From contig CAWFSV010000024.1 in NCBI GenBank assembly GCA_963818575.1, positions 65,319 through 129,318 of the forward strand: a stretch of 64,000 bases of DNA, written 5' to 3'. Within the stretch, counting starts at the first letter, position 1. Each line of letters begins with the position of its first letter. Below are positions 13,891 through 42,654 of the stretch, piece after piece. The position numbers and the translations under genes were made by a program. Under the pieces are notes generated by a model. That model saw nothing but the letters and a program-made list of their open reading frames with translations. It was not told the origin of the DNA and did no database searches. Origin of the DNA: an uncultured Chloroflexia bacterium (GTDB lineage Bacteria > Chloroflexota > Anaerolineae > Anaerolineales > E44-bin32).

Positions 13891-14920
13891 TCAAGGCGGG
13901 GCCGCCTCTCCGGCCGGCGCGGGCAGGGCGCCAATGCGCACGAGCCAGGCGTAGGTCTCCTGCGCCGCCTGGCGGTACGACCTGGCGGGAGGCAGGCCGA
14001 GCTCGATCTGGGACTTGCGCGTGTCGTAGAAGAAGTAGTAACCGGCAAGCCACAGCAGGCTGGGTTCGATCGGGAGCCTCAGGATCGCTCGCGCCGGGTG
14101 CAGCAGCCGCCGGAGCACGGGAACCGCACGGAGCGGAATTCGCAGCCGGGGAGGCCGGCGTTCGACGACCTGCGACGTGATTCGAAACAGGTCGGGCAGC
14201 GTCAGGTTCTCCCCGCCGAGGATGTAGCGTTCGCCGGTGCGACCGCGATCGACGGCGGCCAGGTGTCCGGCGATGACGTCGTCGATGTGCACGGCGTTGA
14301 GGCCGCCGGCAATCAACGGTGTCAGCGACCCCCGGCCGAGGTGCGCAACCAGGCTCTTCGAGGTGCGGTACCAGTCGCCGGCGCCGAACACGGCCGACGG
14401 GTTGACGATGACCGCCTGCAGGCCGTCCTCCACCGCCCGCTGGACCTCAAGTTCGGAGCTGTGTTTGGCGAATGCATACGGCCAACGCTCGGGCAGGTAG
14501 TTCCACACATGACGCTCGTCAAGCAGCGGGGCATTCCTGGCCGAGGAAGACGGCGGGACATCCGGGACGCCGAGTGCCGCGACCGACGAGGTGTGGATCA
14601 GCCGACGGACCCCGGCGCGGCGTGCGGCCTGCAAGACGTGGCGTGTACCCAGAACGTGGGCCTCGATGGCCGTCCGGCCGTCGGCCTCCGGCCGCATCGG
14701 CGCGGCGGTATGAAAGACCACCTCGACACCGTCGAAGGCATCCGGCCAGGGACTCGGGGTCGAGCATGTCGCCGACGACGCGCTGGACGGGCAAACCTTC
14801 GAGCCCGGCGAGGAGCGAGGTCGGCCGGTGCAGCGCGATCACCTCGTGATCCTGGGCGCACAATGCGCGGCACAGGCACGAGCCGATGAAGCCTGAGGCG
14901 CCGGTGACAAGGATGCGCAT
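13891..14920 (-). CDS. HpnA-like NAD-dependent epimerase/dehydratase-family reductase; one frame break near 14745
   Basis: Fragments 14519..14920 ([14 protein letters not shown]...) and 13891..14721 (VVFHTAAPM...YAFAKHSSE...[13 protein letters not shown]...). Confidence 0.8.
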
Positions 14921-14952
14921 GGGTCAGCGCTGGAGAGGGACGCGCGCCGGGG

Positions 14953-24122: not shown

Positions 24123-24213
24123 GAAGCCTCCATCGGTGTCGTGCAGGACAGGCCCTTCTCAGGCCTGCTTTGCCAGGTTCGAGGGTCGTCGCAAATCGCA
24201 GGATCGGTAATAG

Positions 24214-24225
24214 TGACAATTGTCA
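24214..24225. promoter_or_regulatory. Perfect 12-bp palindrome TGACAATTGTCA in the DHOD-like/PFOR divergent intergenic region (operator candidate)
   Basis: Read directly in a locally AT-rich patch. The cognate regulator is unknown. Confidence 0.35.
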
Positions 24226-24355
24226 TCCAGTTTCGTCTGCGCTTCAGCACTATTGCCCGGGGGTGGGGGTCCCTAGACTTGGGAAGTTGACTGACCCCCG
24301 ACGCGCCCCTCGCGCCCACCACCTGGCCGCGCGCCGGTCACCCAAGGAGCTATGC

Positions 24356-27940
<3,585 letters not shown>

Positions 27941-27995: not shown

Positions 27996-28084
27996 GGCAA
28001 GTCGATGCGAGATCCCGGGGGCACGCACGCGCGTGCCCCCGTTTGGTCTTCCACACCGGCACGGTGTGACACCTCACCCCCTGG

Positions 28085-28187
28085 CCCCCTCTCCGCCGAC
28101 GAAAGCCTCTATCACGAAGGAGCGTGGCGGAGAGGGGGCATGAGATTTGTGGGATGGGGGTGCGAAGCTCCCCCATCCCACACAAAT
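28085..28187. repeat. REP-like cluster: CCCCCTCTCCGCC-N29-GGCGGAGAGGGGG plus ATTTGTGGGATGGGGG/CCCCCATCCCACACAAAT
   Basis: Arms at 28085..28097 / 28127..28139 and 28145..28160 / 28170..28187, in the convergent nifJ/feoB gap. The CCCTCTCCGC family recurs at 47979 and 60448. Confidence 0.8.
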
Positions 28188-28288
28188 CCCCGCCCCCTGC
28201 CAATTCTGTGGGGCCGCGAAAGTCAGCCCATGCAGGGGGAGGGGTGAGGGGAGGGGGTTGGATAGGGACCCCGGTCTTCCGGGTCCGG

Positions 28289-30204
28289 CTAGATTCCGGC
28301 GAGGAAGAGCCCGCCGCGGACGGCCAGCGCCACGACCAGCGCCACGACGGTGGCCAGGGCGGCCACGGAACCCATGGCGCGCCAGCCGAGCTCGCGGCGC
28401 AGGACGACCAGCGTCGCCAGGCACGGGATGTAGAACACGACGAAGACGGCGAAGGTGATCATCTGCGTCTGGGTCAGCACAAGGTTGAAGTCCAGCGTCC
28501 CCAGCGCCTGGCCGAGCATCACCAGCGAGAGCTCCTTGCGCAGGATGCCGAAGGCCAGCGGCACGCCGGTGGCGGCGGGCAAACCGAGCACCCAGGTCAG
28601 CGGGCGGACCAGCAGGTCGAGCATGGGCGTCAGTCCGAAGAAGGTCAGCAGCGCGAGGACGACGCTGCCGGCGATCAAGCGCCGGCCAGGCCTCGACCAT
28701 GAACTCGCGCACACGGTACCAGGCCTTGGCCAGGACGGAGCGGGCGGACGGCATGCGGTAGGGCGGGATCTCGAGGATCAGCCCCGGCGACTCCTCGTGC
28801 ATCATGCCGCTGAGCACGCGGCCGGTGAGGGCGATCATGAACAGGTTGAGGACGTAGATGGCCGCCGCGGCCCACGGGCCGACGTATGCCGCCACCAGGC
28901 CGAACACCACCACCAATCGCGCCGAACACGGGATGAGCGTCGAGAGGGCCGCCGCCAGGTAGCGATCGCGCCGGTTCTCCAGGATGCGGGTCGACATGAC
29001 CGCCGGGACCGAGCAGCCGTAGCCCAGGATGAAGGGGACGACGCTCTTGCCGTGCAAACCCATGCGGTGCATGAGCGCATCCATCAGGAACGCCAGGCGC
29101 GGCAGGTAGCCGACGTCTTCGAGGAACCCCAGGCCGAGCAGGAACGGGATCAGGTAGGGCATGACGATCGCCGCACCGCCGGCCACGCCTTGCAGCAGGC
29201 CGATGGCGACGGTGTCCAGAAACGACTGTCCGGCCAGGGTGGCGTGCAGGCGGGTGGTCCATGTCCCAAACAGGGCCAGGAGCGGCGGCTCGATCGCGTT
29301 TCCGGTGGCGTATACCACCTGGAAGAAAGCGAGCAGGATCAGGATCAGCGCAAGATACCCGGCGACCGGGTGAAGCAGGACGTCGTCGAGCCGGTCGCGC
29401 CATGACGTGCGGCGCTCACCCTGCGTGACGACCAGATGCTCGAGGTTCCCGGCCAGGCCGTGCCGTTCGCCCCAGACCACCCAGCGTGCAGGTTGGCCGC
29501 GACGTTCGGCCAGGTCGCGCTGCGCCTGCTCGGCCTTCGGTGCCGAGGGCCGGCGTGATGCGCTCGGTCTCGGCGGCCAATTCGTTGTCGCCTTCGAGCA
29601 GCTTGAGGGCCGTCGCCTCGGGGTGGAGTGGTGTCGGCGTGCCGCGCAGCGCCTCGGCCAGCCCGGCCAGGGCGTCCTCGACATCGCGACCGTAGCGAGG
29701 GCGCGTGATCGGCTGAGGGTTGCGCGCGGCCTGGAAGGCGGCGTTGAACAGCGTGCGCACGCCACGGCCCTTGCTGGCCACCAGCGGCAGGACGGGCACA
29801 CCGAGCTCGCGCTGAAGGCGCGGGCCGTCGATCCGCAGCCCGAGGCGATCGGCCTCGTCCAGCAGGTTGACGGCCAGGATCAGCGGCCTCTGCAGCTCGA
29901 GCAGCTCGAGCGTCATGTCCAGGCCCTGGGACAGGTGCGTGGCGTCGAGCACGTTGATGATCACATCCACGTCGGTCGACGCCAGATAGCGCAGCGTCAC
30001 GCGTTCGGCGGGGTTGGTGCCGGCCAGCGTGTAGGTGCCCGGCAGGTCGACGACGTCGACGACTTCGCCCTGCAGGCGCACCTTGCTCTCGGTGTACGCG
30101 ACCGTCGTGCCCGGGAAGTTGCCCGTGTGCGCCTTGTAGCCGGCCACCTGGTTGAAGAGCGTGCTCTTGCCGCAGTTCGGCTGGCCGACGAGGGCGATGC
30201 GCAT
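28289..30204 (-). CDS. feoB: Ferrous iron transporter FeoB; two frame breaks (~29545, ~28690)
   Basis: N-terminal GTPase MRIALVGQPNCGKSTLFN (ORF 29416..30537 frame), membrane core in the ORF 28074..29801 frame, and C-terminus in ORF 28289..28714. Confidence 0.85.
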
Positions 30205-30452
30205 CAGTCGGCGACCGTTCCGGGGGCAGGGACCGGGGAGACCTCCAGGCCGGAGGCGATCTTCCAGCCCAGGGCGATGATGCGACCGTCCACCTCGAGG
30301 AGCAGGGGTCCGTGGAATGGGGCGCGCCGGAGCAGGCGGACGGCGCCTCCGGGGAGCAGGCCGAGCGAGCGCACCTGTCCTTCGGCGGCCGGGTTCGCTG
30401 GCAGGCCCTGCAGGATCAATTGGTCGCCGGTCCGGGCATCGGTGAGTCTCAC
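30204..30452 (-). CDS. feoA: FeoA family protein
   Basis: Intact 82-aa SH3-like FeoA ORF. The stop overlaps the feoB ATG (TGATG). Confidence 0.8.
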   Translation of the reverse strand: MRLTDARTGDQLILQGLPANPAAEGQVRSLGLLPGGAVRLLRRAPFHGPLLLEVDGRIIALGWKIASGLEVSPVPAPGTVAD

Positions 30453-30804
30453 AGCTGCAACCTGTCGCTGCCGGATGCATTCGTCCGGCTGCGCGAGTGA
30501 ACCATTGTAACGCGGGGAGGCGGGGCACAGCGACCACCGACGGTGGGAGCGGGCACGGCGGCCGGCGCCCGACGAGCGAGGTGAAAGTTGAAGATCAGCA
30601 TCTGAGCCTGAATCAGAGCCTCAGCTGGCGCAAGTGCGGAGCGAACTGAGATGTGCTTTCACTACATGTCAGGCCTCCGTGCACGGGATGCCAAGAGCGC
30701 GTGCGGAAAAGGCGGGGAAGCATCACGAGGTCGACGCTCGAGGAGCGCGTATTGCGTTTCTCCTTTCGTCCTCTCCCAGGAGGGGACCCTCGGGCGGGGC
30801 GGGT

Positions 30805-31876
30805 TCACTCAAGGAACTTCTTCAGACCGTACTGCAGCAGCGTGATGACGACCGGCAGAACCAGCGCCGCCACGAGACTGCGCATCGTCTCGGCCCGCCA
30901 GGGCCAGGTGGGGATGCGTTCGATCACCGCCCGGGCGCGCTCGAGGGCCAACAGGGTCGTGTTGACGCGGTCGGCGGCAGCCAGGTCGCCCTGGTCGACG
31001 CGGCGGTAGACCTCGCTCATGCACTTCTGCCAGCGGAGGCTGAGATCGGAAAGCTCCTGGTCCTTGGTCTGAACCAGCCGCCGGTGCAGCCCCATCAGCG
31101 GGAGCAGGAAGGCCAGGATGGCCATCAGGGAGAAGAGGGCGGCCGCCGACATGAACGGGCCCACGAGACCCTCGGGCGTGATCAAGACTGCGGCCGAGAT
31201 AATCAGCAAGCCGCCGATGGCCGTATGCGCAGTCAGGGTCGAGAAGGCGACCAGGGGAGCCACGTTGTGCAGATCGACCCGAGTGCTCGTGGCATACAAC
31301 CGGTTGACCAGGCGCAATTGGCGGATGGAGTGGTAGATGTACAGGCCGGCGAACACGACGGAGGCGTAGAACTGAAGCCGGTCCAGGACTCCGAAGGCGG
31401 AGGTGGTTGTCCAGGAGATGCTGACGTACACCCCGAGAAGCAGCGCCACCAGGCTCGCCGCCGCGGCGGGTCGGGCGGGCAGCGTGGTGAGCTGCCAGCG
31501 GATGCCTCGGAGCCTCAGCCTCGTTGCCGGTGAAGGCCGGCCGGTACTCCTCCAGCGACGCGGCTGCCCTGCGGTCGAGGTAGTGAAGCAGCCAGAAGCC
31601 GTAGAAGGGTACGGAATGAGCATAGAGCACGGCAGGCGTCAGGAGTTCTCCCTCCAGGTTCAGCAAGACGCCCGCCAGGCCGAGGAACGCCAGGCACACC
31701 ACGAGATACGGCAGCCAGTACGGTCCCGGGAGTTGGTCGATGCGGCGAGCAAGGCGGTCGAACCAGCTCGGTCGATAAGGCGGGACGAAGGCAGGAGCCG
31801 GTGGGGTGACGGTGGGAACCGATCTCGGTCGCGGCTGAGAGGGTCTTTCAGCACGGGTCGATATGCGCCGGGTCAT
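30805..31876 (-). CDS. Paralog A of an unrecognised ~7-TM membrane protein family (PPYPPSW...IPTWPW); 1 frame break (~31500)
   Basis: ORF 30809..31876 gives the N-terminus (PAFVPPYRPSWFDRLARRIDQLPGPYW). ORF 30805..31623 gives the rest (WQLTTLPARP, IYHSIRQLRLVNRLY, ERIPTWPWRAETMRSLVAALVLPVV). ATG 31876 overlaps the stop of B (ATGA). Confidence 0.7.
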
Positions 31877-32978
31877 CCGAGCAGCCTCTGAAGGACGTAT
31901 TGAATCAGCCAGAGGAGCACCGGGAGCAGGAAGGCCGCCATCAGATTGCGGAACATCCCGCGCGGCCAGGGCCAGGTGGGGATCTTCTCCAGGGCGGCCG
32001 ACTCGAGCTCGAGCGTGGCCAACGCCTTGTGGAACTCATCCATGCCGCTCAGGGGCTCGCGTTCGAGCTCGCTGGTGGAATCGCTGGGTGATGGATTCTC
32101 GCCGGTGGCCAACGTTGGCCAGCTCCGCTTCCTTGCGCTCGACCAGGATGCGGTGCGCGCCCCACAACGGCCAGACGAAGATCAGGATCGGCCACACGTA
32201 GAACGGAACGGTCAAGAAGGACGACCATGACGTAGGACGAGGGCATGGCTCCGGGCTGAACGCCCGGGTCGGCCAGCCATGGGTAGGTGTAGACGGCGAA
32301 CCCGAGCGCGGTCAGCGCGGTCAGCCCGGCCAGGGCGTACACCGGCTGCAGGCGATACAGGTCCACCTGGGTTTGATGGGTATAGATGCGGCTGACGGTT
32401 CGCATCTGGTGGATGGTGTGGTAGATCAGCGTGAACCAGAACCACAGGGTTGGGATGAAGGTGATCAAGCATGAAGGCGAACGCGGTCGGCGAGGCATTC
32501 AAGCCGAACATCGGATAGTCGCTGAAGATCCACCTGACCGGCCGCGACGGAGATGGCGCCAAAGGCGAAACCGATGAGTCCAGCCACGATCGTCGGGCGG
32601 GGAGGCAGCGTCGTCAATTCGTATTGCAGGCGCGGATAGGGTGAAGCGTCGGGCCGCAGCGCCGGCCGGAAACGTTCGAGGGCCGTGATAGCCCGCCGGT
32701 CGAAGGCGTGCATCAGGAAGATCGCCAGGACGTAGTTGACGGGAAAGAAGAACTGGAAGAACTGGACGCCGTGCGTGGCGAAGATGCCATCCCGCCACAG
32801 GATCGTCACCTGGATGCACCTCGAGGAGGAGGGCCACGATCAGGTAGAACGACCACCACGGGATGGGCAGGCGATCGACCCAGTCGGTGAACCGGTCGAC
32901 CCAGGAAGGGGGATAGGGCGGAACGAAGGCCGGCACCGGAGTCCGGGGTGGAGACGAGCGCTTGGATTTGGGAGGCAT
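31873..32978 (-). CDS. Paralog B of the same family; ~5 frame breaks
   Basis: Pieces 32499..32978 (MPPKSKRSSPPRTPVPAFVPPYPPSWVDRFTDWVDRLPIPWW), 32465..32809 (YELTTLPPRPT), 32212..32562, 32049..32498 (IYHTIHQMRTVSRIY, LYRLQPVYA), an unlisted piece (WPLWGAHRILVERKEAEL) and 31873..32112 (EKIPTWPWPRGMFRNLMAAFLLPVLLWLIQYVLQRLLG). Confidence 0.65.
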
Positions 32979-33056: not shown

Positions 33057-34164
33057 CTACTGCAGCATCCTTCCAAGACCGAACTGAATGAGCCACACGG
33101 TGATGGGAAGGAGCACGGCGGCCAGAAGCCCGCGCGGCGTGCCGGGCGACCAGGGCCATGTGGGGATGCGGTTCACGTCGGCCGCCTCCATCTCGAGCAC
33201 CGCCAATGCCTTGTGGGACGCTTCGATGGCCCGCGCCTGGCTGTTGTCGAGCGAGGAGGTGGAAGCTGGCGTACGCAACCTGTTTCCGCCGCGCAATCTC
33301 CGTCAGGGCCTCGGCCTTTCGCTGCACCAGACACCCGGTGCACCCCCCACAGTGGGGAGAGGAAGATGAAGGCGGCCAGGACGGCGTCGAATGCCGTCCA
33401 GATGATCTGCACCCCAACCCCGACCCCGGTCGGCTGCGACAGCAGGAACCAGCCGGCGCCAAAGAGGATCCAGATCGCGGCGGTGACGGCGGTGACGTTG
33501 GAGAAGGCGTACAGCGGGCGGAGGTGGAACAGGTCGGCCTGGACGCGGCGGGTGAGGAGATCGTTGATGACCCACAGCTGATGGAACGAATGGACGACGA
33601 AGATCGGGAAGAGAGTGATGTTGATGACCCCGACAACCGTGGCCGCCACTCGGGCGAAAGTGGTAAGCGCGCCGGAGGCGAAGAACTCGTAGAACCCCGA
33701 TTGGCAGGATGATCGAGAGACCCGCACCGACCAGGATCGCCCAGCGCACTGACGAGGCAGGTAGTGTCGTCAAGCGATAGCGAAGGACCTGCGTCTCATC
33801 GTCAGAATTGTGCAAGAGCGGTCGAGTAGCATCCAGCGCGGTTCCCGCCAGGCGGTCGATGTAGTGCATGAAACAGAAGGCGAGCGCGGGTTGGATGGCG
33901 GTGACGAAGTCGGTGTAGTCGCCTCCCCGGTAGACGGCGCCGGTGACACGCAGGGCGAGCTGCCACGGCGGCTGGGGGTAGGGCCATCAAGGCGTAGGCC
34001 AACCAGGCGGGAATGGGAAGGCGGTCGACCCAGGCCGTGAAGCGATCGAAGGCGCTGGGGGGGTAGGGCGGGAGGAACCGTGGCTTGGTGGACGAAGATG
34101 CGCCGGCCGCCGGCTTCGCCGAGCGAACACGTGGCGTCGAGCGGGCGTTGGTCGGTCGTTTCAT
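33057..34164 (-). CDS. Paralog C of the same family; ~4 frame breaks
   Basis: ATG 34164 (MKRPTNARST...PRFLPPYPPSAFDRFTAWVDRLPIPAW), 33303..33869 (RYRLTTLPASS), 33173..33727 (VHSFHQLWVINDLL, LFHLRPLYAFS, SPLWGVHRV) and 33057..33296 (NRIPTWPWSPGTPRGLLAAVLLPITVWLIQFGLGRMLQ). The ATG overlaps the stop of D (ATGA). Confidence 0.65.
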
Positions 34165-35231
34165 CCCAACAGCCTCCCCAATCCAAACTGGACCAGCCAC
34201 AACAGGACGGGCAGGAGGACCGCCCCCACCAGGTTGCGCAGCGTTCCCGCCGCCCAGGGCCATGTGGGGACTTTGCTTATTTCGGCGTGCTCGGCCTGGA
34301 AGGCGTCCAGAGCCTTGTGGAGTGGATCCACCTTCTCGAGCTCCCCGGCATCCAGAGCCTGGCGGAGCTGAGCGCGCCCGGAGGCCTTTCGCCGCGGCGA
34401 GCTCGGCCAACGCCGCGTCCTTGGCCTCGGAGAGTTGACGATGGGCGCCCCACAGGGGCCAGGCGAAGATCACCACGACGGCGACAAGATTGAAGAGCGT
34501 TTCAACGACGGTGACCGGATTGAGCGGATCGCCCCCCGGCTGGGCCAGAAACCAGCCGTAATTGAAGATCACGATGCCGATCGCCGTCAGGCTCGGTCAC
34601 GCGCGACAGGGCGTACATCGGCCGGATCGTCGAAAGGCGAACCTGGGCGTGATCGCGGTGCAGGCGATGGATCTCCCGCAGCTGATACCAAATGTGAAAG
34701 AAGAACGGGTAAGAGGAAAGATACAGGAAGGTGAGGATGACGAGGAAGAGGACCGGGAGGCGCTCGAGCCCCCCGGTCTGGAGCTGGGACATCTCCCATT
34801 GCCCCAGTGGAAGGCTGATGATCGTTCCGACGGCGGTGAAGATGAGCGTCGGCCGGGCGGGCAGCGTCGTGATGCGGTAGACAGCGGTGGCAAAGGCTCG
34901 GTCGTCGCCGCGGAAGGCGGGACGGAAGCGCTGCATGGCCGAGGCCGCCGCATGGTCCAAGGCGTGCGTCAGGGCGAGCAGATAGACCGCCAGCGTCGGC
35001 AGCCAGATCTGCATCGGGTGGAACCCCACGGCGGCGTAGACCCCGGTCTGCCGCAGCGCCAGGGCGATGGCGCCGCAGTAGGCGAGCGCAAGCAGGACAT
35101 AGAAGAGCCACCACGGGATGGGCAGACGGTCAACCCAGTCGGTGAAACGGTCGACGAAGCTCGGCGGGTAGGGCGGAACGATGGCCCCCGCAGTGGAGTG
35201 GGCCGTGGGGTTCGACGTCTGATCGTGCCAT
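34161..35231 (-). CDS. Paralog D of the same family; at least 3 frame breaks
   Basis: ATG 35231 with a GGAGG RBS is out of frame with the body. The body lies in the 34502..35479 frame (IVPPYPPSFVDRFTDWVDRLPIPWW, YRITTLPARPT, FHIWYQLREIHRLH, IRPMYALS), then the 33802..34572 frame (AWPLWGAHRQL). Own translation of the end gives KVPTWPWAAGTLRNLVGAVLLPVLLWLVQFGLGRLLG. Confidence 0.65.
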
Positions 35232-35775
35232 GGTGCCTCCCGGCAGGGCCTCCCACGACGGAACGGGTGCGGTCCGACCGCCAAGTTCTTCAGGGGTAAT
35301 CGCGTCGATGTGCGAAGGGGTGGCGCGTAGCCACGGTCGCCCGGCGTTGCGCCTGCGGCCTTGAGGTCGGCGGCAGGGCGAGCAAGCACAGGGCGAGGGC
35401 GGATTCGCCGGTCCTGTCTGTGGGATTCCTGGGAGGGTCGCTGGAGTCCGTGAGGGAGCGCAATCACGAGTAAGCCCACCGCAATAGGCGTAGTTTACTA
35501 CGCAAGGTGGGTTTTGACGTGAAGTGGGTAGCTCGGCCTTACCCGCCGCAGGGACCCTCCAGGATTACCGCCTGACTGCAATTCGGCCGCAGGCTGCTTC
35601 AGCAGACCGATCTCGGGCCTGTTGGGGGAGCGTATCGAGGGCGGACTCGCGTCGCGCTGCTCTATGGGCGCAGCTGAAGCTCGGCCAGGTGCCCCGGACG
35701 GCTAGGGGGAGATGGACCACCGGAGGCCCGAAGGCGACTTCGTTGCGGCCCGAACCCGGGCGGCGCAGTCGTCGC

Positions 35776-36953
35776 CTACGGAAGGACCCGCTGGAGGATG
35801 TACTGGACCAGCCAGATCACGAGCGGGAGCACGAGCGTGACCGCCACGCCGCGCAGTGTGCCGGGCTCCCACGGCCAGGTGGGGATACGTTGGAGGGCCG
35901 CTCGCTCGATCTCCAGGCTGCTGAGCGTCTTGTTGAGGTCATCCATCTTCGTCATGGCCTTCTTGTCTACCCGCTGGTGCAGTTCGGTCACGGCCGCCTC
36001 GAAACGGCGGGCGCTCTCCGCCAGCGCTTTCCTCTTCTCCGCCACCAGCCGGCGATGGATCCCGAGCAGCGGCCAGGCGAAGATCACGGCCGACGCCACG
36101 GCAAAGAAGATGCCCAAGACGATGCTGATGGGCTGAGCGAGGAACTCAGGGCCCGCCGCGAACCAGGTGTAGTTGTACAGGATCAATCCGCCCGAGGTGA
36201 TGGCGGCCGGCACGGAGAACGCGTACAGCGGCTGCAGTCGATACAGGTTCAGCCGGGCGAAGGTCAGGTAGATGCGGCTGATCTCCCGGAGCTGATGGAT
36301 CGAGTGGTAGATGAAGACGCCGGCGACGGCCTCGGAGAACGCCATCTGGATCAGGAAGACGGCCATGGCGCCCGGCGAGGTCGACATGCGACCCCAGGCG
36401 AAGGCGGCCGTCAGGGAATAGGTCGTCGCGCCGGGAGGGCGGAAGACAAGCAGGGGGATGACAACGCCCAGGAGCACGCCGGCCAGAGACGCCCACAGCG
36501 TCGGCCAAGGGGGCAAGGTCGTCAGGCGGTAGCGCAACTCCTCCAGGGAGGATCCCTTGTCCGCAGGACCTTCCCGTGATCGACGGGGAAGATCGAGGAC
36601 GGGACGGAAGGTCTCGAGGGCGGCGGCCGCCGATCGGTCGAGGAGACTCATCAAGCCCAGCAGGTAGGCGAATTGCGAGCCCAGAAAGAGGTGAAGGACG
36701 AGGTACTTCCCCGGATGGTAGGCGCCGGCGAGCATCTGCACCCCGATCAGCACGAGCATCCCGGCCACTCCCAACAGCAGGTAAGCCAGCCAGGATGGAC
36801 CGGGCAGGCGGTCGATCCGCCTGGCTAGCCGGTCGTACCAGCTCGGCGGGTAGGGCGGGACGAAAACAGCCGGAGGCGTAGCCGAAGCTTGAGGCTGGAC
36901 CGCCTTCGGCGGCTTTCGCCTTACGGGAGAGTGTTGAGGCACGTCGAACTCAT
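35776..36953 (-). CDS. Paralog E of the same family (best preserved; 1 break near 36922)
   Basis: The last ~383 codons of ORF 35776..37563 are one frame: VFVPPYPPSWYDRLARRIDRLPGPSW, RYRLTTLPPWPT, IYHSIHQLREISRIY, LYRLQPLYAFS, AWPLLGIHRRL, QRIPTWPWEPGTLRGVAVTLVLPLVIWLVQYILQRVLP. ATG 36953 overlaps the stop of F (ATGA). Confidence 0.75.
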
Positions 36954-38132
36954 GGGAGCAGCCTTTCCGCACCAAGCTGGATCGCCCAGATGAGGATGGG
37001 GAAGATGAGCGCCACGAGCAGGCCGCGAGCGTTCCTTGCTCCCAGGGCCATGTGGCGATACGGGATAGAGCACTGCGCTCGAGGTCAAGACTTGCCAGGG
37101 CCTTATTCAGTTCATCCATGCCTATCAGGTTTCGGCGGTCCATCCGCGCGTGAAGATCGGCAATCCCGGATTCCAGACGGCGGGTGTTCTCCTCGAGCAG
37201 GCGCTCCTTCTCGGCAGCGAGCAGGCGGTGCACGCCCAACAGCGGCCAGGCGAAAGTAACGGCGACGATGGCAGCCCAGAGGATCCCGCCCAGGAGCAAG
37301 AAGGCAGGTTGGGCTCGGAATCCGGAGGCTGTCAGGCTGAAGATGTAGAAGAAGCAAATCGTCCCGATCGTCGTCTGCTGCGTGACACGAGAGAAGGCAT
37401 ACAGGGGACCAAGGTGCAGCAGGCGAACGCGGGTGTGTCGGGTGTAGATGCGACTGATCACGCGCAACTGATGGATCGTGTGATAAAGGAATACGGCGAT
37501 CGTCCACCACACCACCAGGAGCACCAGCGACGACCACAGAGACGGAGAGAGGTGTCGGGGCAATCTGAAAGAGCTGGGGCCCGAGGTCGATAATACTCAC
37601 CCGGCTTCCCGGCCGGAGAATCCAATCTGTCGAACAGCATCAGAAGGCTATTCACCAGCACCAGCCCAGCGGCAAGGCGCGTCGTCGGCCTGGCGGGGAG
37701 CGTCGTCAAGCGGTACTGCAGGTCGCGGCTTGTCGCCGGGGTGGCCAGCGAGAGCGGGGCGGAATTGATCGAAGGCGCTGGCGGCCAGACGGTCCAAGTA
37801 ATGCGTCAGTGCCAGCATGAACGGGGACCATGCGGCGAACAAGACGTGGAACGGCCGGATCTCGCCGGGCGGGTAGCCGCCTTCGCGCCACTGGATCAGC
37901 GTCAACATCCCAAAGATCACCAGTCCAAAGAGCCCGTAAACAACGTAGGCGGAGATACGGAGCCGGTCCAGGCGCGCGCTGCAGCCGGTCGAACCAACTC
38001 GGTGGGTAGGGCGGGATGAAAGGCGGCTGCTCCGCCGACGGCGCCGAGGCGCGCCGTTCGCCCGGCCTTCTTCGGCGCCTCTTCGGGCAGGCCGGAACGG
38101 AAGGGGAGGGTTGGACTCTTGCGTTTGCTCAT
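36950..38132 (-). CDS. Paralog F of the same family; ~5 frame breaks
   Basis: ATG 38132 lies 3 nt after the reductase stop. Pieces: 37917..38132; a short piece IPPYPPSWFDRL; the tail of 37648..38754 (ARLDRLRISAYVVYG...FDQFRPAL); 37458..37709 (YRLTTLPARPTT); the head of 35776..37563 (LYHTIHQLRVISRIY, AWPLLGVHRLL, SRIATWPW). The final 25 codons are in another frame (RGLLVALIFPILIWAIQLGAERLLP). Confidence 0.65.
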
Positions 38133-38135
38133 CTC

Positions 38136-39121
38136 TCAGACCACTCCGTGCGCCCGGTACCAGGCCAGGGCTTCGACGATCGCCTGGCGCGCCGTCCGCG
38201 TGCGCGCCAGGCCGAGCTCGGCTGCGCGCCTTGGACGTGTCGCAGAACAAACGGTGACGGCTGAGGCGGAGCTGGTTGCCATCCAATGGCATGGGCACCA
38301 CGCTCCGGACGAGGTCGAGCGCCGTCGCCGCCGGCTCGATGGCCCAGTTCGGAAGGCGAAGCCACGGCGGCTGGGAGCCGACCACCTCCGCCAGCAGCGT
38401 GAAGAGCTGCAAGTGAGTCAGGTTCTCACCACCGAGGATGTAGCGCTCGCCGCTGCGGCCTCGTTCGGCAGCCGCCAGGTGCCCGGCGGCGACATCGTCG
38501 ATGTGGACGATGTTGGTGCCGCCGCCGGTGTACAGAAACGTCCGCCCGCGCGCCGCCTGGATCACAAGCGACCCGCTGATCTGGTGCACGTCGCCGGCGC
38601 CGATCACGATCGACGGGTTGACGACCACCACCTCGAGCGACTCGCCGGCGTCCTTCAACGCCTCGAGCTCTGCCTGGCGTTTGGCATAGCCATAGGGGAA
38701 GCGCTTGGCCGGCAGGTTGAAGGTGTGCGCCTCGGTGAGCAGCTCGCTTGCCAACGGGTACGCCCAGCGCCGCCATCGACGAGGTCAGGATCAATCGCTC
38801 GACGCCGGCTTGCCGGCAGGCGAGCACGATGTTGCGCGTCCCCTCGACCGCCCCGCGGATCACCTGCTCGGGCCGCAGGCGCCAGTAGGCCGCCACGGCC
38901 GCGGCGTGGAACACCCAGCGCACCCCGGCGACGGCGGGAGCCAGGGACTCGGGATCGAGGATGTCGCCGACGCGGCGGTCGACGCGCAGGCCCTCCAGCG
39001 CGGAGAGGTCGGACGAGGGACGGTGCAGGGCACGGACCTCGAGGCCCTGCTGGGCCAGGTGGCGGCAGACGGCCGATCCGAGGAAGCCGCTGGCGCCGGT
39101 GACCAGGACCGGGTCAGGCAA
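38136..39121 (-). CDS. HpnA-like NAD-dependent epimerase/dehydratase-family reductase, paralog 2 (possible 3-keto reductase); 2 frame breaks (~38760, ~38230)
   Basis: ORF 38426..39121 (TTG start; [12 protein letters not shown]...) joins ORF 37648..38754 (YGYAKRQAE...[13 protein letters not shown]...). Own translation of the end gives AAELGLARTRTARQAIVEALAWYRAHGVV, with the stop at 38136. Confidence 0.75.
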
Positions 39122-40296
39122 TCAGGCCCAGCCCCCGGCCGACCTCGCCCAGGATCGACAGGGCGCGGTCGATCTGCTCGTCGGTGTGGGTGGCCATGTA
39201 GCTCGTCCGCAGCAGGCACTGATCCGCGGGAACCGCCGGCGAGATGACGGCGTTGACGTACAGCCCGGCCTCGTAGCAGCAGCTTCCAGGCTTCCATCGT
39301 GCGGTCGAGGGTGCCGGTGATGATCGGGATGATCGGCGTGACGCTGGGGCCCATGTTGAATCCCAGCGCCACCAGCCCGGCGCGCATGCGCTCGGTGACC
39401 GCCCACAGGCGGTCGACGCGCTCGGGCTCGCGCTCCATGATGTCGAGGGCGGCCAGGACGGCGGCCACGTTGGAGGCGGGCATCGAGGCGCTGAAGATCA
39501 GCGAGCGGGCGTGGTGCTGGATGTAGTGGATCGGGTCCTCGTCGCCGGCGATGAAGCCTCCCAGCGAAGCGAAGGACTTGCTGAAGGTGCCCATGATCAG
39601 GTCGACCTGATCGGTGACGCCGAAGTGGGCGGCCGTGCCGCGGCCGCGGGCCATCACGCCCAGGCTGTGGGCATCGTCGACCATCAGGCGCGCGCCGTGC
39701 TTGCGGCAGATCGGGACGATCTCCGGCAGCGGCGCCAGGTCGCCGCCCATGCTGTACACGCCGTCGACGACGACCAGCCGCCCGGCCTTGGGGTCGATGC
39801 CGGCCAGCTGCCGGTCGAGGTGGGCCATGTCGTTGTGCGAGAAGCGGCGCATCTCGCCGAAGGACAGCATGCAGCCGTCGACGATGCTGGCGTGGTCATC
39901 CTTGTCGGCCAGGACGATGTCGCCGCGGGCGACGATGGACGAGATCGTGCCCAGGTTGGTCTGGTAGCCGGTGCTGAAGACCAGGGCCGCCTGCTTGCCG
40001 ACGAAGGCCGCCAGGCGCGCCTCGAGTTCCTGGTGCAGCGCCAGCGTGCCGTTCAGGAAACGCGAACCGGTGCAGGAGGTGCCGTAGCGGGCGATGGCGT
40101 CGATGGCTGCCTGGCGGACGCGGGCGTCGGTGGTCAGGCCCAGATAGTTGTTCGAGCCGATCATCAGCAGCCGCCGGCCGCCGATGGTCACCTCGGTCCC
40201 TTCGGTGTCCTCCAGGGGCAGGAAATACGGATAGTAGCCGGCGGCCTTCGCCAGCTTGGCGTCCATATACGACTGGGCCTTCTCGAAGATATCCAT
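39114..40296 (-). CDS. PLP-dependent alpha-oxoamine synthase, serine palmitoyltransferase-like; 1 frame break (~39265)
   Basis: ATG 40296 within ORF 38860..40815. SNNYLGLT, GSRFLNGT (SPT-like rather than BioF/KBL-like as far as I recall), DDAHS, GTFSKSF (PLP lysine). Own translation of the end gives EAGLYVNAVISPAVPADQCLLRTSYMATHTDEQIDRALSILGEV, with the stop at 39114. Confidence 0.75.
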
Positions 40297-40372
40297 ACCG
40301 TCTCCCTGGGAGCGCAACGATGCCGGAGGTGATGGGTGAGGCTGGCGGGTCCCCTGGCGAAGGGGTCCCGCA

Positions 40373-40401
40373 AGGATACGGGAGCCGGAGGGGAAAGTCA
40401 A
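40373..40401 (-). promoter_or_regulatory. Promoter candidate for the SPT-like operon (minus strand): TTGACT, 17 nt, TATCCT
   Basis: Read directly: -35 is the reverse complement of 40396..40401 and -10 the reverse complement of 40373..40378, ~75 nt upstream of ATG 40296. Confidence 0.45.
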
Positions 40402-40461: not shown

Positions 40462-40489
40462 TTGACGACTTCCGGGCAACCGGTATAAT
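40462..40489 (+). promoter_or_regulatory. Near-consensus sigma-70 promoter: TTGACG, 16 nt, TATAAT, driving the serS leader
   Basis: Read directly: -35 at 40462..40467 and -10 at 40484..40489. Confidence 0.65.
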
Positions 40490-40813: not shown

Positions 40814-42092
40814 ATGCAGGACTTGCAGGAGATCCGTGCCCATCCCGATCAGGTGCGGGCGTCGCTCGCCCGGCGCGGGATCGAGCCGCCGATCGATACG
40901 CTGCTGGCGCTGGATTCCGACCGGCGGGCGCTGCTGACGCAGGTCGAGCAGCTCAAGGCCGAGCGCAATCGCGTCTCGAAAGAGATCGGCCAGATGAAGG
41001 ACGCCGCCGGCCGCGAGGTGCGCATCGGCGAGATGCGCGCCATCGGGCAGCACATCGAGGCGCTGGACGTCAGCGTGCGCGAGAAGGAAACGGCGCTGCA
41101 CGAGCTGCTGGCGGGGCTGCCGAACGTGCCCGACGCCGACGTCCCCGACGGACCGGACGAGACGTTCAACGTCGTCGAGCGTACCGTCGGCGAGCCGAAG
41201 CGTTTCGACTTCGAGCCGCGCCCGCACTGGGACCTCGGGCCGGCGCTCGGCATCCTGGACTTCGAGCGCGGGGTCAAGCTGACCGGTTCGCGGTTCTACG
41301 TGCTGAGCGGCGCCGGGGCGCGCCTGCAGCGGGCGCTGATCGCCTGGATGCTCGACCTGCACATCGCGGCAGGGCTACCTGGAGAAGTACACGCCGTTCG
41401 TCGTGCGTGAGGAGACGCTCTTCGCCGCCGGGCAGCTGCCGAAGTTCCGGGACAACCTGTACCACGACCACGAAGAGAACCTGTGGCTGGTTCCCACGGC
41501 CGAGGTGCCGCTGACCGGGCTGCACATGGACGAGATCCTCGACGGGGGCACGCTGCCCCGAAGGTACACCGCCTACACGCCGTGCTTCCGGCGCGAGAAG
41601 ATGTCGGCCGGGCGCGACGTGCGCGGCATCAAGCGCGGCCACCAGTTCGACAAGGTCGAGATGTACACCTTCTGCGCGCCGGAGGACTCGGAGGCCGAGC
41701 TCGAACGCATGCTGTCGCACGCCGAGCAGACGTGCGCCGACCTCGGCTTCGCCTACCGGGTCAAGAAGCTGTGCGCCGGCGACCTGGGCTTCTCGGCGCG
41801 CAAGACCTACGACGTCGAGGTCTGGGCGCCGGGGTGCGGCGAGTGGCTCGAAGTCTCGTCGGTCTCGAACTGCGGCGACTTCCAGGCGCGGCGCGCCAAC
41901 GCCCGCTACCGGCGGGAGCTGGGCGCCAAACCGCAGCTGGTGCACACGCTGAACGGGTCGGGGCTGGGGCTGCCGCGCACGCTGATCGCCGTGCTGGAGA
42001 ACTACCAGCAGGCGGATGGCACGGTCATCGTGCCGGCCGTGCTGCGGCCGTGGATGGGCGGCGTGGACATGCTCACCCCCGAAAGCGCCTGA
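40814..42092 (+). CDS. serS: Seryl-tRNA synthetase; 1 frame break (~41365)
   Basis: ORF 40787..41410 from ATG 40814 (coiled-coil arm, HWDLG...[15 protein letters not shown]) joins ORF 41403..42092 ([11 protein letters not shown]...TAEVPLTG...[28 protein letters not shown]...[11 protein letters not shown]). Confidence 0.9.
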
Positions 42093-42654
42093 TGCCCGAA
42101 ACGCTGTGGGCGATTCCGGCCGGGCTGTTCATGCTGATCGGATTGATCGGCACGCTGCTGCCGGCCGTGCCGGATCTGGTGTTGATCTGGGCGACGGCGT
42201 TGGGCTACGGGCTGCTGGCCGGGTGGGGGATTGGGGTCCGTGGCTGTTCGCCGGGATCAGCCTGCTGTGCGGCGTCGGGCTGCTGTCGGAGGTGCTGACG
42301 AGCAGCGCCGGGGCGCGCATCGGGGGTGCGTCGGTCTGGAGCATCGTCGGCGGTGTGGCGGCCGGCGTGATCCTGCTCTTCGCCGCCGGGCCGCTGGGCG
42401 CGCTGATCGCGCTGCTGGCCGGCATCTTCCTGCTCGAGTGGCGCAAGGACCGCGACACCCGGCGGGCAGGCCAGGCCGTCCTGGGAACGGCCGTCGGGTA
42501 CGTGGCCTCGTTCTTCGTCAAGTTCGCCCTTGGATTCGCCTGCGTCGGACTGTGGGTGATCTGGGTGATCGTTCCTGAAGGCCTGAGCTGTCGGAACCGA
42601 GATGCGACGTGCGCCTGCCCATCGGGCAGGCGCATCGATTCCGGAACACGATGA
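42092..42654 (+). CDS. DUF456 family membrane protein; 1 frame break (~42235)
   Basis: The ATG overlaps the serS stop (TGATG). [33 protein letters not shown], then the ORF 42016..42654 frame. Confidence 0.55.

Follow-up and report, generated by a model that had tools for sequence, protein, structure and literature searches.

Two adjacent genes in a 64-kb stretch of an Anaerolineae (Chloroflexota) genome, one for an alpha-oxoamine synthase (AOS) resembling serine palmitoyltransferase (SPT) and one for an extended short-chain dehydrogenase/reductase (SDR), probably form a sphingoid-base module that would work with an unlinked YghO-like N-acyltransferase. Judged from the sequences, the frame breaks that interrupt both genes are most likely assembly errors, and the six membrane protein genes that follow them would lie outside the pathway. 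Sphingolipids have long been considered rare in bacteria. Sediments, sludge and deep water harbour abundant Chloroflexota of the class Anaerolineae, whose synthesis of ceramides has, to our knowledge, only been inferred, from correlations between metagenomes and lipids.

The stretch, referred to below as the window, comprises 64,000 nucleotides of contig CAWFSV010000024.1 (positions 65,319 to 129,318 of the forward strand) of the assembly GCA_963818575.1. The source is a metagenome-assembled genome (MAG) of 3.19 Mb with 67% GC, 76% complete and divided into 26 contigs. Positions are given in window coordinates, except those prefixed C8 or C19, which refer to other contigs of the source genome. 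For comparisons across the class we used a sample of 201 genomes including the source; the 200 others consist of 122 genomes with an SPT orthologue (SPT+) and 78 without (SPT-). All co-occurrence values are raw genome counts in which kinship is ignored.

The whole block is located on the minus strand and consists of a promoter-like site, the AOS gene, the SDR gene and six paralogous membrane genes. The two enzyme genes at its head are:

39117..40296, minus strand: SPT-like AOS, 393 aa as stitched across its frame break, ATG at 40296 and TGA at 39119-39117
38136..39121, minus strand: HpnA-like extended SDR (SDR1), 331 aa as stitched, TTG start at 39121 and TGA ending at 38136

The TTG start of the SDR gene (39121) overlaps the stop codon of the AOS gene by 5 nt, which confirms the overlap reported in a first-pass annotation made from the letters of the window alone.

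An SPT-like alpha-oxoamine synthase

Family and structure rankings both placed the AOS with the SPTs. The highest-scoring NCBIfam model was SPT-CFB (NF047600, 524 bits), followed by SPT-beta (422), the BioF/Kbl-related TIGR01825 (378), BioF (373) and KBL (337). The best match in the PDB was the SPT of Sphingobacterium multivorum (3a2b/8guh), with 431 bits and 51% identity over 375 aa. Lower scores were obtained for the Sphingomonas SPTs (about 290-300 bits), Thermus BioF/KBL (273) and cysteate acyltransferase (249), and the lowest for KBL (about 230), BioF (about 210), ALAS (192) and CqsA (112).

The active-site residues of the S. multivorum enzyme have been described by Ikushiro and colleagues (PMC10196870), and 16 of the 18 are identical in the AOS. 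The lysine that carries pyridoxal phosphate (K240 in the AOS) and the His/Asp/His set (H135, D207 and H210) are shared by the two proteins, the S. multivorum equivalents including His138, Asp210 and His213. Also identical is the loop Gly80-Leu84, which gives the amino-acid pocket its shape (GSRFL, or GSRFLN when extended to Asn85). The two differences, F114Y and M271I, both occur in the Spt of E. coli BL21 as well. The AOS and the S. multivorum SPT are of similar length (about 393-398 aa) and a dedicated acyl carrier protein (ACP) gene adjoins neither of them; they differ in that one host belongs to the Bacteroidota and the other to the Chloroflexota, and in that the AOS is known from sequence alone.

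The references of the maximum-likelihood tree were few. Two of them, the SPT of S. multivorum and the Spt of E. coli BL21, grouped with the AOS and 25 Anaerolineae homologues, and the other two, Kbl and BioF of E. coli, with a second AOS of the source genome (AOS2); the split between the two groups has support values of 100/99. The first-pass annotation had held that the AOS fits bacterial SPTs better than BioF or KBL, and had named phylogeny and active-site inspection as ways to check this. The two motifs on which it relied are present (GSNNYLGLT at aa 47-55 and GSRFLNGT at aa 77-84), and its judgement agrees with both rankings, the loop, the active-site residues and the tree. At the level of sequence, the AOS is SPT-like and far closer to SPT than to BioF, KBL, ALAS or CqsA.

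The second synthase, AOS2 (C19, about 223050-224239), has AVRTI in place of the GSRFL loop, and its best matches are Thermus BioF/KBL and E. coli KBL. It passes the KBL and BioF cut-offs with 529.6 and 566.8 bits (NF005394, 460; TIGR00858, 426.45), whereas the AOS of the window stays below both with 337 and 373 bits. Since AOS2 is of the KBL type, the housekeeping function appears to be covered elsewhere in the genome. Neither a threonine dehydrogenase gene (tdh) nor biotin genes are adjacent to the AOS gene.

These data bear on the alternative that the AOS is a KBL, BioF, cysteate acyltransferase (CFAT) or other amino-ketone synthase, and that the SDR reduces the product of that reaction. The enzyme is uncharacterised, every NCBIfam score is below its curated cut-off, and SPTs and CFATs are closely related (PMC13692747). 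However, the PDB scores of KBL, BioF and CFAT are roughly half that of SPT, the tree splits the AOS from BioF and Kbl, and the substrate loop is the same as in S. multivorum SPT, while a remodelled pocket is reported for CFATs (PMC13692747). With a true KBL-type gene located elsewhere and no genes for threonine degradation by tdh or for biotin next to the AOS gene, we consider a synthase other than SPT very unlikely.

AOS proteins with 80-85% identity were found in MAGs labelled Anaerolineales or Chloroflexota. An AOS orthologue at 58% identity or higher was present in 123 of the 201 class genomes, which makes it a common feature of the class; the rest contained only KBL-like matches of 41-49% identity.

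The putative reductase and its coupling to the SPT gene

Orthologues of the SDR, defined by a threshold of E<=1e-50, were identified in 69 of the 122 SPT+ genomes and in 5 of the 78 SPT- genomes. The linkage is also conserved: an SDR orthologue lies directly beside the SPT gene in 16 further genomes, drawn from 5 other families, with order and orientation shuffled, and a comparison of 25 SPT loci revealed the SDR gene as the only recurring neighbour. Copies that are linked to the SPT gene and copies that are not belong to one clade (support 98/96). Taken at the level of gene content and gene order, a functional coupling between the predicted reductase and the SPT is well supported.

The small open reading frames located beside SPT genes encode FmdB-type zinc ribbons rather than ACPs. 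One of them, 78 aa in length, is a neighbour of the SPT gene at two loci of unrelated genomes (L015 and L025).

Two Spt-adjacent SDRs, in genomes G027 (locus L022) and G080 (locus L021), fell outside the HpnA-like clade, and that of G027 grouped weakly with E. coli CerR. More than one type of reductase is thus found beside the SPT gene in this class. The window itself contains a further copy of the HpnA-like type:

13930..14923, minus strand: second HpnA-like SDR (SDR2), with one frame break

SDR2 is 43-49% identical to SDR1 and is sister to SDR1 and its close relatives (100/99), as a lineage-specific duplicate.

The translation of SDR1 contains the Rossmann motif TGxxGxxG (as VTGASGFLG), the catalytic serine (LTSS) and YGYAK, and it matched PF01370 with an E-value of 1e-33. 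Its best NCBIfam match was HpnA (TIGR03466) with 279 bits, which does not reach the cut-off of 367.65, and the next in the ranking were the lipid enzymes SdmB and OleD. GalE and dTDP-glucose dehydratase (RmlB) scored far lower, with 48.7 and 29.7 bits. In the PDB, the best match was the putative oxidoreductase 3wj7 (225 bits, full length), followed by cinnamoyl-CoA and flavonoid/flavonol reductases; GalE chains scored about 33-35 bits and NDUFA9 chains about 30 bits. These scores favour the assignment to the lipid keto-reductases over one to the sugar-nucleotide epimerases, as had been supposed before. No signal peptide was found in the SDR, so the reduction would take place in the cytoplasm.

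A role in hopanoid synthesis, as for HpnA, was considered and rejected. The HpnA cut-off is not reached, and no squalene-hopene cyclase scored above its own cut-off in the genome (76% complete), which argues against such a role. Although HpnA and the Gluconobacter-type structure 3WJ7 are its best family and structure matches, the genomic partner of the SDR is the SPT gene and not the hopanoid genes.

We also weighed the broader possibility that the SDR is unrelated to sphingolipids, being an HpnA-like, sugar-type or general lipid ketoreductase that stands next to the SPT gene by chance. HpnA is indeed its best family, in most genomes its orthologues are located away from the SPT gene, and G027 and G080 pair the SPT gene with SDRs from outside the clade. 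Yet the co-occurrence of 69 of 122 versus 5 of 78 genomes, the recurrent adjacency in 16 genomes in shuffled order and the position of the SDR gene between a bCerS-like GNAT gene and Spt in six genomes all run counter to chance, as do the very low GalE-type scores and the lack of a detected squalene-hopene cyclase. An incidental neighbour is therefore, in our estimate, unlikely.

Relation to CerR and the proteobacterial clusters

The genes of a cluster in E. coli BL21 have been equated with the ceramide genes of Caulobacter (PMC9386255); the order in E. coli BL21(DE3) is yghO-aasR-epi-acpR-spt. The genes of the ceramide cluster in Caulobacter and E. coli BL21(DE3) are spt, acpR, cerR (epi), aasR and bcerS (aca/yghO). 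These clusters (PMC9386255, PMC11087976) follow the same logic as the one proposed here, with an AOS, an extended-SDR reductase and a YghO-type N-acyltransferase. They differ from the source genome, where AcpR and AasR were not found and the acyltransferase candidate is unlinked, and CerR has been reported to be periplasmic while the SDR lacks a signal peptide.

The similarity of the SDR to the CerR homologue of E. coli BL21 is restricted to the N-terminal 120 aa (33% identity), and the best CerR-like matches in the genome are located elsewhere and are weak. In the tree, CerR (CC_1164 / ECD_02852) is placed outside the Anaerolineae SDR clade. The best NCBIfam match of CerR is itself HpnA, with 95 bits. 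By these comparisons the two proteins are distant cousins in one corner of the extended-SDR superfamily and not orthologues. The earlier assignment of the reductase to the class of CerR holds as far as the extended-SDR motif and the Ser/Tyr/Lys residues are concerned, but it does not extend to orthology, given the short match and the position outside the CerR branch.

Acyltransferase candidates

YghO is the homologue of the ceramide N-acyltransferase (PMC9386255). Six genomes contained a trio of genes for a YghO-like GNAT, the SDR and Spt, with the SDR gene in the middle (G187, G158, G085, G042, G125 and G051); five of them are from one family and one is from another. The GNAT in these trios is a 380-aa double-GNAT protein, and that of G187 has 35.5% full-length identity to E. 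coli YghO. Matches to the G187 protein at E<=1e-70 were obtained in 111 of the 122 SPT+ genomes and in 22 of the 78 SPT- genomes.

No YghO/bCerS-type GNAT gene is present on the entire contig of the window, in line with the earlier remark that none is adjacent to the block. The first-pass annotation had proposed to search the rest of the genome for bCerS, ACP and acyl-ACP synthetase genes, and the outcome was mixed. The source genome contains four members of the YghO-like family, all with broken frames, and the best candidate is:

C19:49057-50185, outside the window: bCerS/YghO candidate, 41-43% identical to the G187 protein and 30-35% to YghO over residues 8-378

The candidate shows homology over its full length to double-GNAT proteins of the YghO / CC_1154 type, and the surrounding genes are unrelated. 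AcpR-like and AasR-like genes were not found in the source genome, which fits an SPT of the CFB type that uses acyl-CoA.

In a separate group of genomes, family f13 (G011, G058, G100, G137, G170 and G196), a YghO-like GNAT with 53-56% identity to the G187 protein is present without an SPT orthologue. The acyltransferase family accordingly has at least one function besides the synthesis of sphingolipids by way of SPT.

Frame breaks

Neither of the two enzyme genes is intact as assembled, a point that the first-pass annotation had not raised. The AOS gene has a single frame change near 39283 and the SDR gene has two, near 38757 and 38222. All three are +1 breaks with one extra base each, and at each of them an extra C directly precedes a GAG (Glu) codon (C|GAG). 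When stitched, the AOS is 393 aa long and aligns from end to end, at 100% coverage, with hundreds of intact proteins of 393 aa, the closest of which (P0001, 393 aa) is 95% identical. The stitched SDR likewise matches intact homologues of 328-341 aa from end to end.

Similar breaks were observed in the essential gene serS next to the block, in the DUF456 gene behind it, in AOS2 and in the YghO-like genes. A conservative scan of the genome identified at least 211 candidate breaks of the +1 type, evenly spread over the 26 contigs. The fragments contain neither in-frame stops nor deletions, and a strong GC bias at third codon positions is kept in every one of them. The breaks are most likely assembly or consensus errors of a noisy MAG rather than signs of gene decay: we read them as assembly noise because the essential serS gene next door is also broken, and the fact that nearly all consist of one extra base points to a systematic consensus error.

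A decay of the AOS gene, the SDR gene and most of the paralogs into pseudogenes, with real breaks, is the competing explanation. It would account for the three breaks that fall within 2.2 kb and for those in the paralogs, at least ten in number. It does not sit well with breaks in serS and in many genes on all contigs, with the nearly uniform type of break, with the intact codon bias and lack of in-frame stops and deletions in the fragments, or with the 95% identity of the stitched AOS to the intact P0001. We hold real decay to be highly unlikely.

Quadruplet or programmed +1 decoding at CGAG was also examined and rejected. The CGAG motif was observed 29 times where 4.8 were expected (in-frame 4-mers, 211 windows), yet CCTG, GGAG, GCTG and GCAG were equally enriched. 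The enrichment is a phase artefact, since it is common to all motifs that consist of C or G and a common codon, a pattern that any out-of-phase window should show. The break in serS is not at CGAG.

Proposed pathway

In the pathway that we propose, the AOS would act as a soluble SPT of the CFB type and form 3-ketodihydrosphingosine by condensing a long-chain acyl thioester with L-serine. As no dedicated AcpR or AasR was found, this thioester is probably acyl-CoA. The translationally coupled, cytoplasmic SDR would then use NAD(P)H to reduce the 3-keto group, either of the free base or of a base that has already been N-acylated. A YghO/bCerS-like N-acyltransferase, for which the C19 gene is the best candidate, would complete dihydroceramide. 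The substrates, the order of the steps and the final lipid are what we infer from the family relationships of the enzymes.

Several observations weigh against this pathway. The AOS does not reach any curated NCBIfam cut-off (524 versus 640 bits for NF047600); with the SPT cut-off missed, the family call rests on the ranking, the tree and the residues. At E<=1e-50, the SDR is missing from 53 of the 122 SPT+ genomes, and it is no orthologue of CerR, the sole bacterial reductase that is genetically proven. The four YghO-like paralogs and the occurrence of the family in the SPT-less f13 genomes make the assignment of the acyltransferase uncertain. The literature that we searched contained neither an assayed enzyme of the AOS clade nor a sphingolipid from cultured Anaerolineae. 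Real pseudogenisation of the AOS and SDR genes is a further alternative, and a very improbable one. Weighing all of this, we still think it likely that the AOS and the SDR constitute the sphingoid-base module.

The idea of a sphingoid-base-type pathway headed by these two genes, as put forward in the first-pass annotation, is retained in part. An SPT-like AOS and an SPT-coupled SDR remain at its core, but the orthology to CerR, the role of the membrane paralogs and the notion of an unexpected lineage do not. As regards the lineage, Ding et al. 2024 in ISME J (PMC11334938) assigned Spt-like proteins of 218 Chloroflexota MAGs to an SPT clade, and in the deep Black Sea they found a correlation of Anaerolineae with ceramides, Gly-ceramides and Lys-ceramides. 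Chloroflexota, Anaerolineae included, have thus been regarded as putative producers of sphingolipids since 2024, and the lineage can no longer be called unexpected. That study concerns the same phylum and class and makes the same type of prediction, an AOS grouped with known SPTs by phylogeny; for CerR and bCerS it relied on homology searches with the proteobacterial references. The text covered here contains no description of an HpnA-like SDR partner or of this AOS-SDR operon, and the supplementary tables give no CerR or bCerS data per MAG as text.

The novelty is modest and lies in a reductase type that differs from CerR, while the prediction of sphingolipids for the lineage was already known. 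To that prediction the locus adds a concrete gene set: an SPT of the Bacteroidota type, an HpnA-like reductase that is not CerR and an unlinked acyltransferase of the YghO type. If the assignment of the reductase is true, screens by homology to CerR or KDSR alone will under-count complete pathways. A bolder hypothesis would make the HpnA-like SDR a third, independently recruited 3-keto reductase, besides the classical SDRs of the KDSR type and the NDUFA9-like CerR, and would at the same time make the seven-helix family of the block a new class of sphingolipid-handling proteins (a substitute for ceramide synthase, a flippase or a lipid-gated channel). We give this combination very little credence.

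The six membrane paralogs

The first paralog starts with an ATG at 38132, 3 nt beyond the stop codon of the SDR gene (38136). This spacing and the presence of six paralogs, noted before, were both confirmed, and the copies form a single family that extends down to 30805:

36950..38132, minus strand: paralog 1, seven-helix membrane family, several frame breaks, traced by tblastn with the family members of relatives
35776..36953, minus strand: paralog 2, start overlapping the stop of paralog 1 (ATGA), the best-preserved copy with 450 bits to the family profile
34161..35234, minus strand: paralog 3, frameshifted, start uncertain with the frame open up to 35479
33057..34164, minus strand: paralog 4, ATGA-coupled to paralog 3, frameshifted
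31873..32978, minus strand: paralog 5, frameshifted
30805..31876, minus strand: paralog 6, ATGA-coupled to paralog 5, the last gene of the block

The proteins are about 350 aa long and their genes are arranged as three ATGA-coupled pairs. In relatives, one to six family copies occupy the same position and are followed by a gene for an ABC ATPase, and the order AOS-SDR-paralog(s)-ABC ATPase was found in five close relatives. Up to about 540 nt (35234-35776) separate paralogs 2 and 3, unless paralog 3 has an N-terminal extension; an internal promoter between these two genes is possible.

The family matched no Pfam or NCBIfam model and contains no acyltransferase motif. A confident AlphaFold model based on 43 sequences (pLDDT 90.4) contains seven long helices, for which a Foldseek search of the PDB returned no significant match. 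The top matches, insect gustatory and odorant receptors, were not significant, with E-values of 0.17-1.5 and TM scores of about 0.30-0.33. These receptors represent the seven-transmembrane ion channel fold (7TMIC; insect Gr/OR), with which the paralogs share no sequence similarity.

Among the 200 other class genomes, the family was detected in 21, namely 12 of the 122 SPT+ and 9 of the 78 SPT- genomes, and never near the SPT gene; the two are co-located only in close relatives. The link of the paralogs to the pathway rests on operon position in a narrow clade, because there is no association with SPT across the class. Further partial copies are located at C19:78998-79594 and C8:103987-104520, which brings the number of family copies in the genome to at least eight.

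The suggestion that the paralogs serve as acyltransferases, flippases or scaffolds for the lipid product is unsupported, as they are equally common with and without SPT. Membership in the pathway, whether as an unconventional ceramide synthase, a flippase or exporter, or a scaffold, would explain the tight operon geometry behind the SDR gene (the 3-nt spacer and the ATGA pairs) and the gene order kept in five close relatives. Against it stand the counts of 12 of 122 and 9 of 78 and the absence from SPT neighbourhoods in the 200 genomes, as well as the extra copies on C19 and C8 and the lack of a Pfam or NCBIfam match, an acyltransferase motif or a significant fold match. We find a part in the pathway very improbable. 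The paralogs are co-transcribed neighbours in a narrow clade only and are not counted in the pathway, which removes a tempting link between six membrane genes and lipid synthesis.

Promoter and flanking genes

The promoter-like site and the genes on either side of the block are:

40373..40401, minus strand: sigma-70-like promoter candidate TTGACT-17-TATCCT, 77 nt upstream of the AOS ATG
40814-42083, plus strand: seryl-tRNA synthetase gene serS, divergent to the AOS gene, with a +1 break near 41370
42113-42573: DUF456 gene after serS, with a frame break
28074-30620, minus strand: feoA and feoB, the latter frameshifted
24125-27940, plus strand: pyruvate:ferredoxin oxidoreductase gene

The promoter candidate, which had been pointed out earlier, was found at 40401..40373 and is the sole match to TTGACT-17-TATCCT in the window, where 0.01 are expected by chance. 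It agrees with the consensus at 9 of 12 positions, and it is a candidate by this consensus match alone. With feoA, feoB and the pyruvate:ferredoxin oxidoreductase gene directly downstream, the block ends after paralog 6.

An Rfam search of the window gave no match, and so none to a riboswitch or other RNA in the 500-nt spacer between serS and the AOS gene. On the opposite strand of this shared spacer, a strong promoter-like site, TTGACG-16-TATAAT (11 of 12 consensus positions), faces serS at 40462-40489 (plus strand). A MarR-type regulator, absent here, occupies this position in three relatives.

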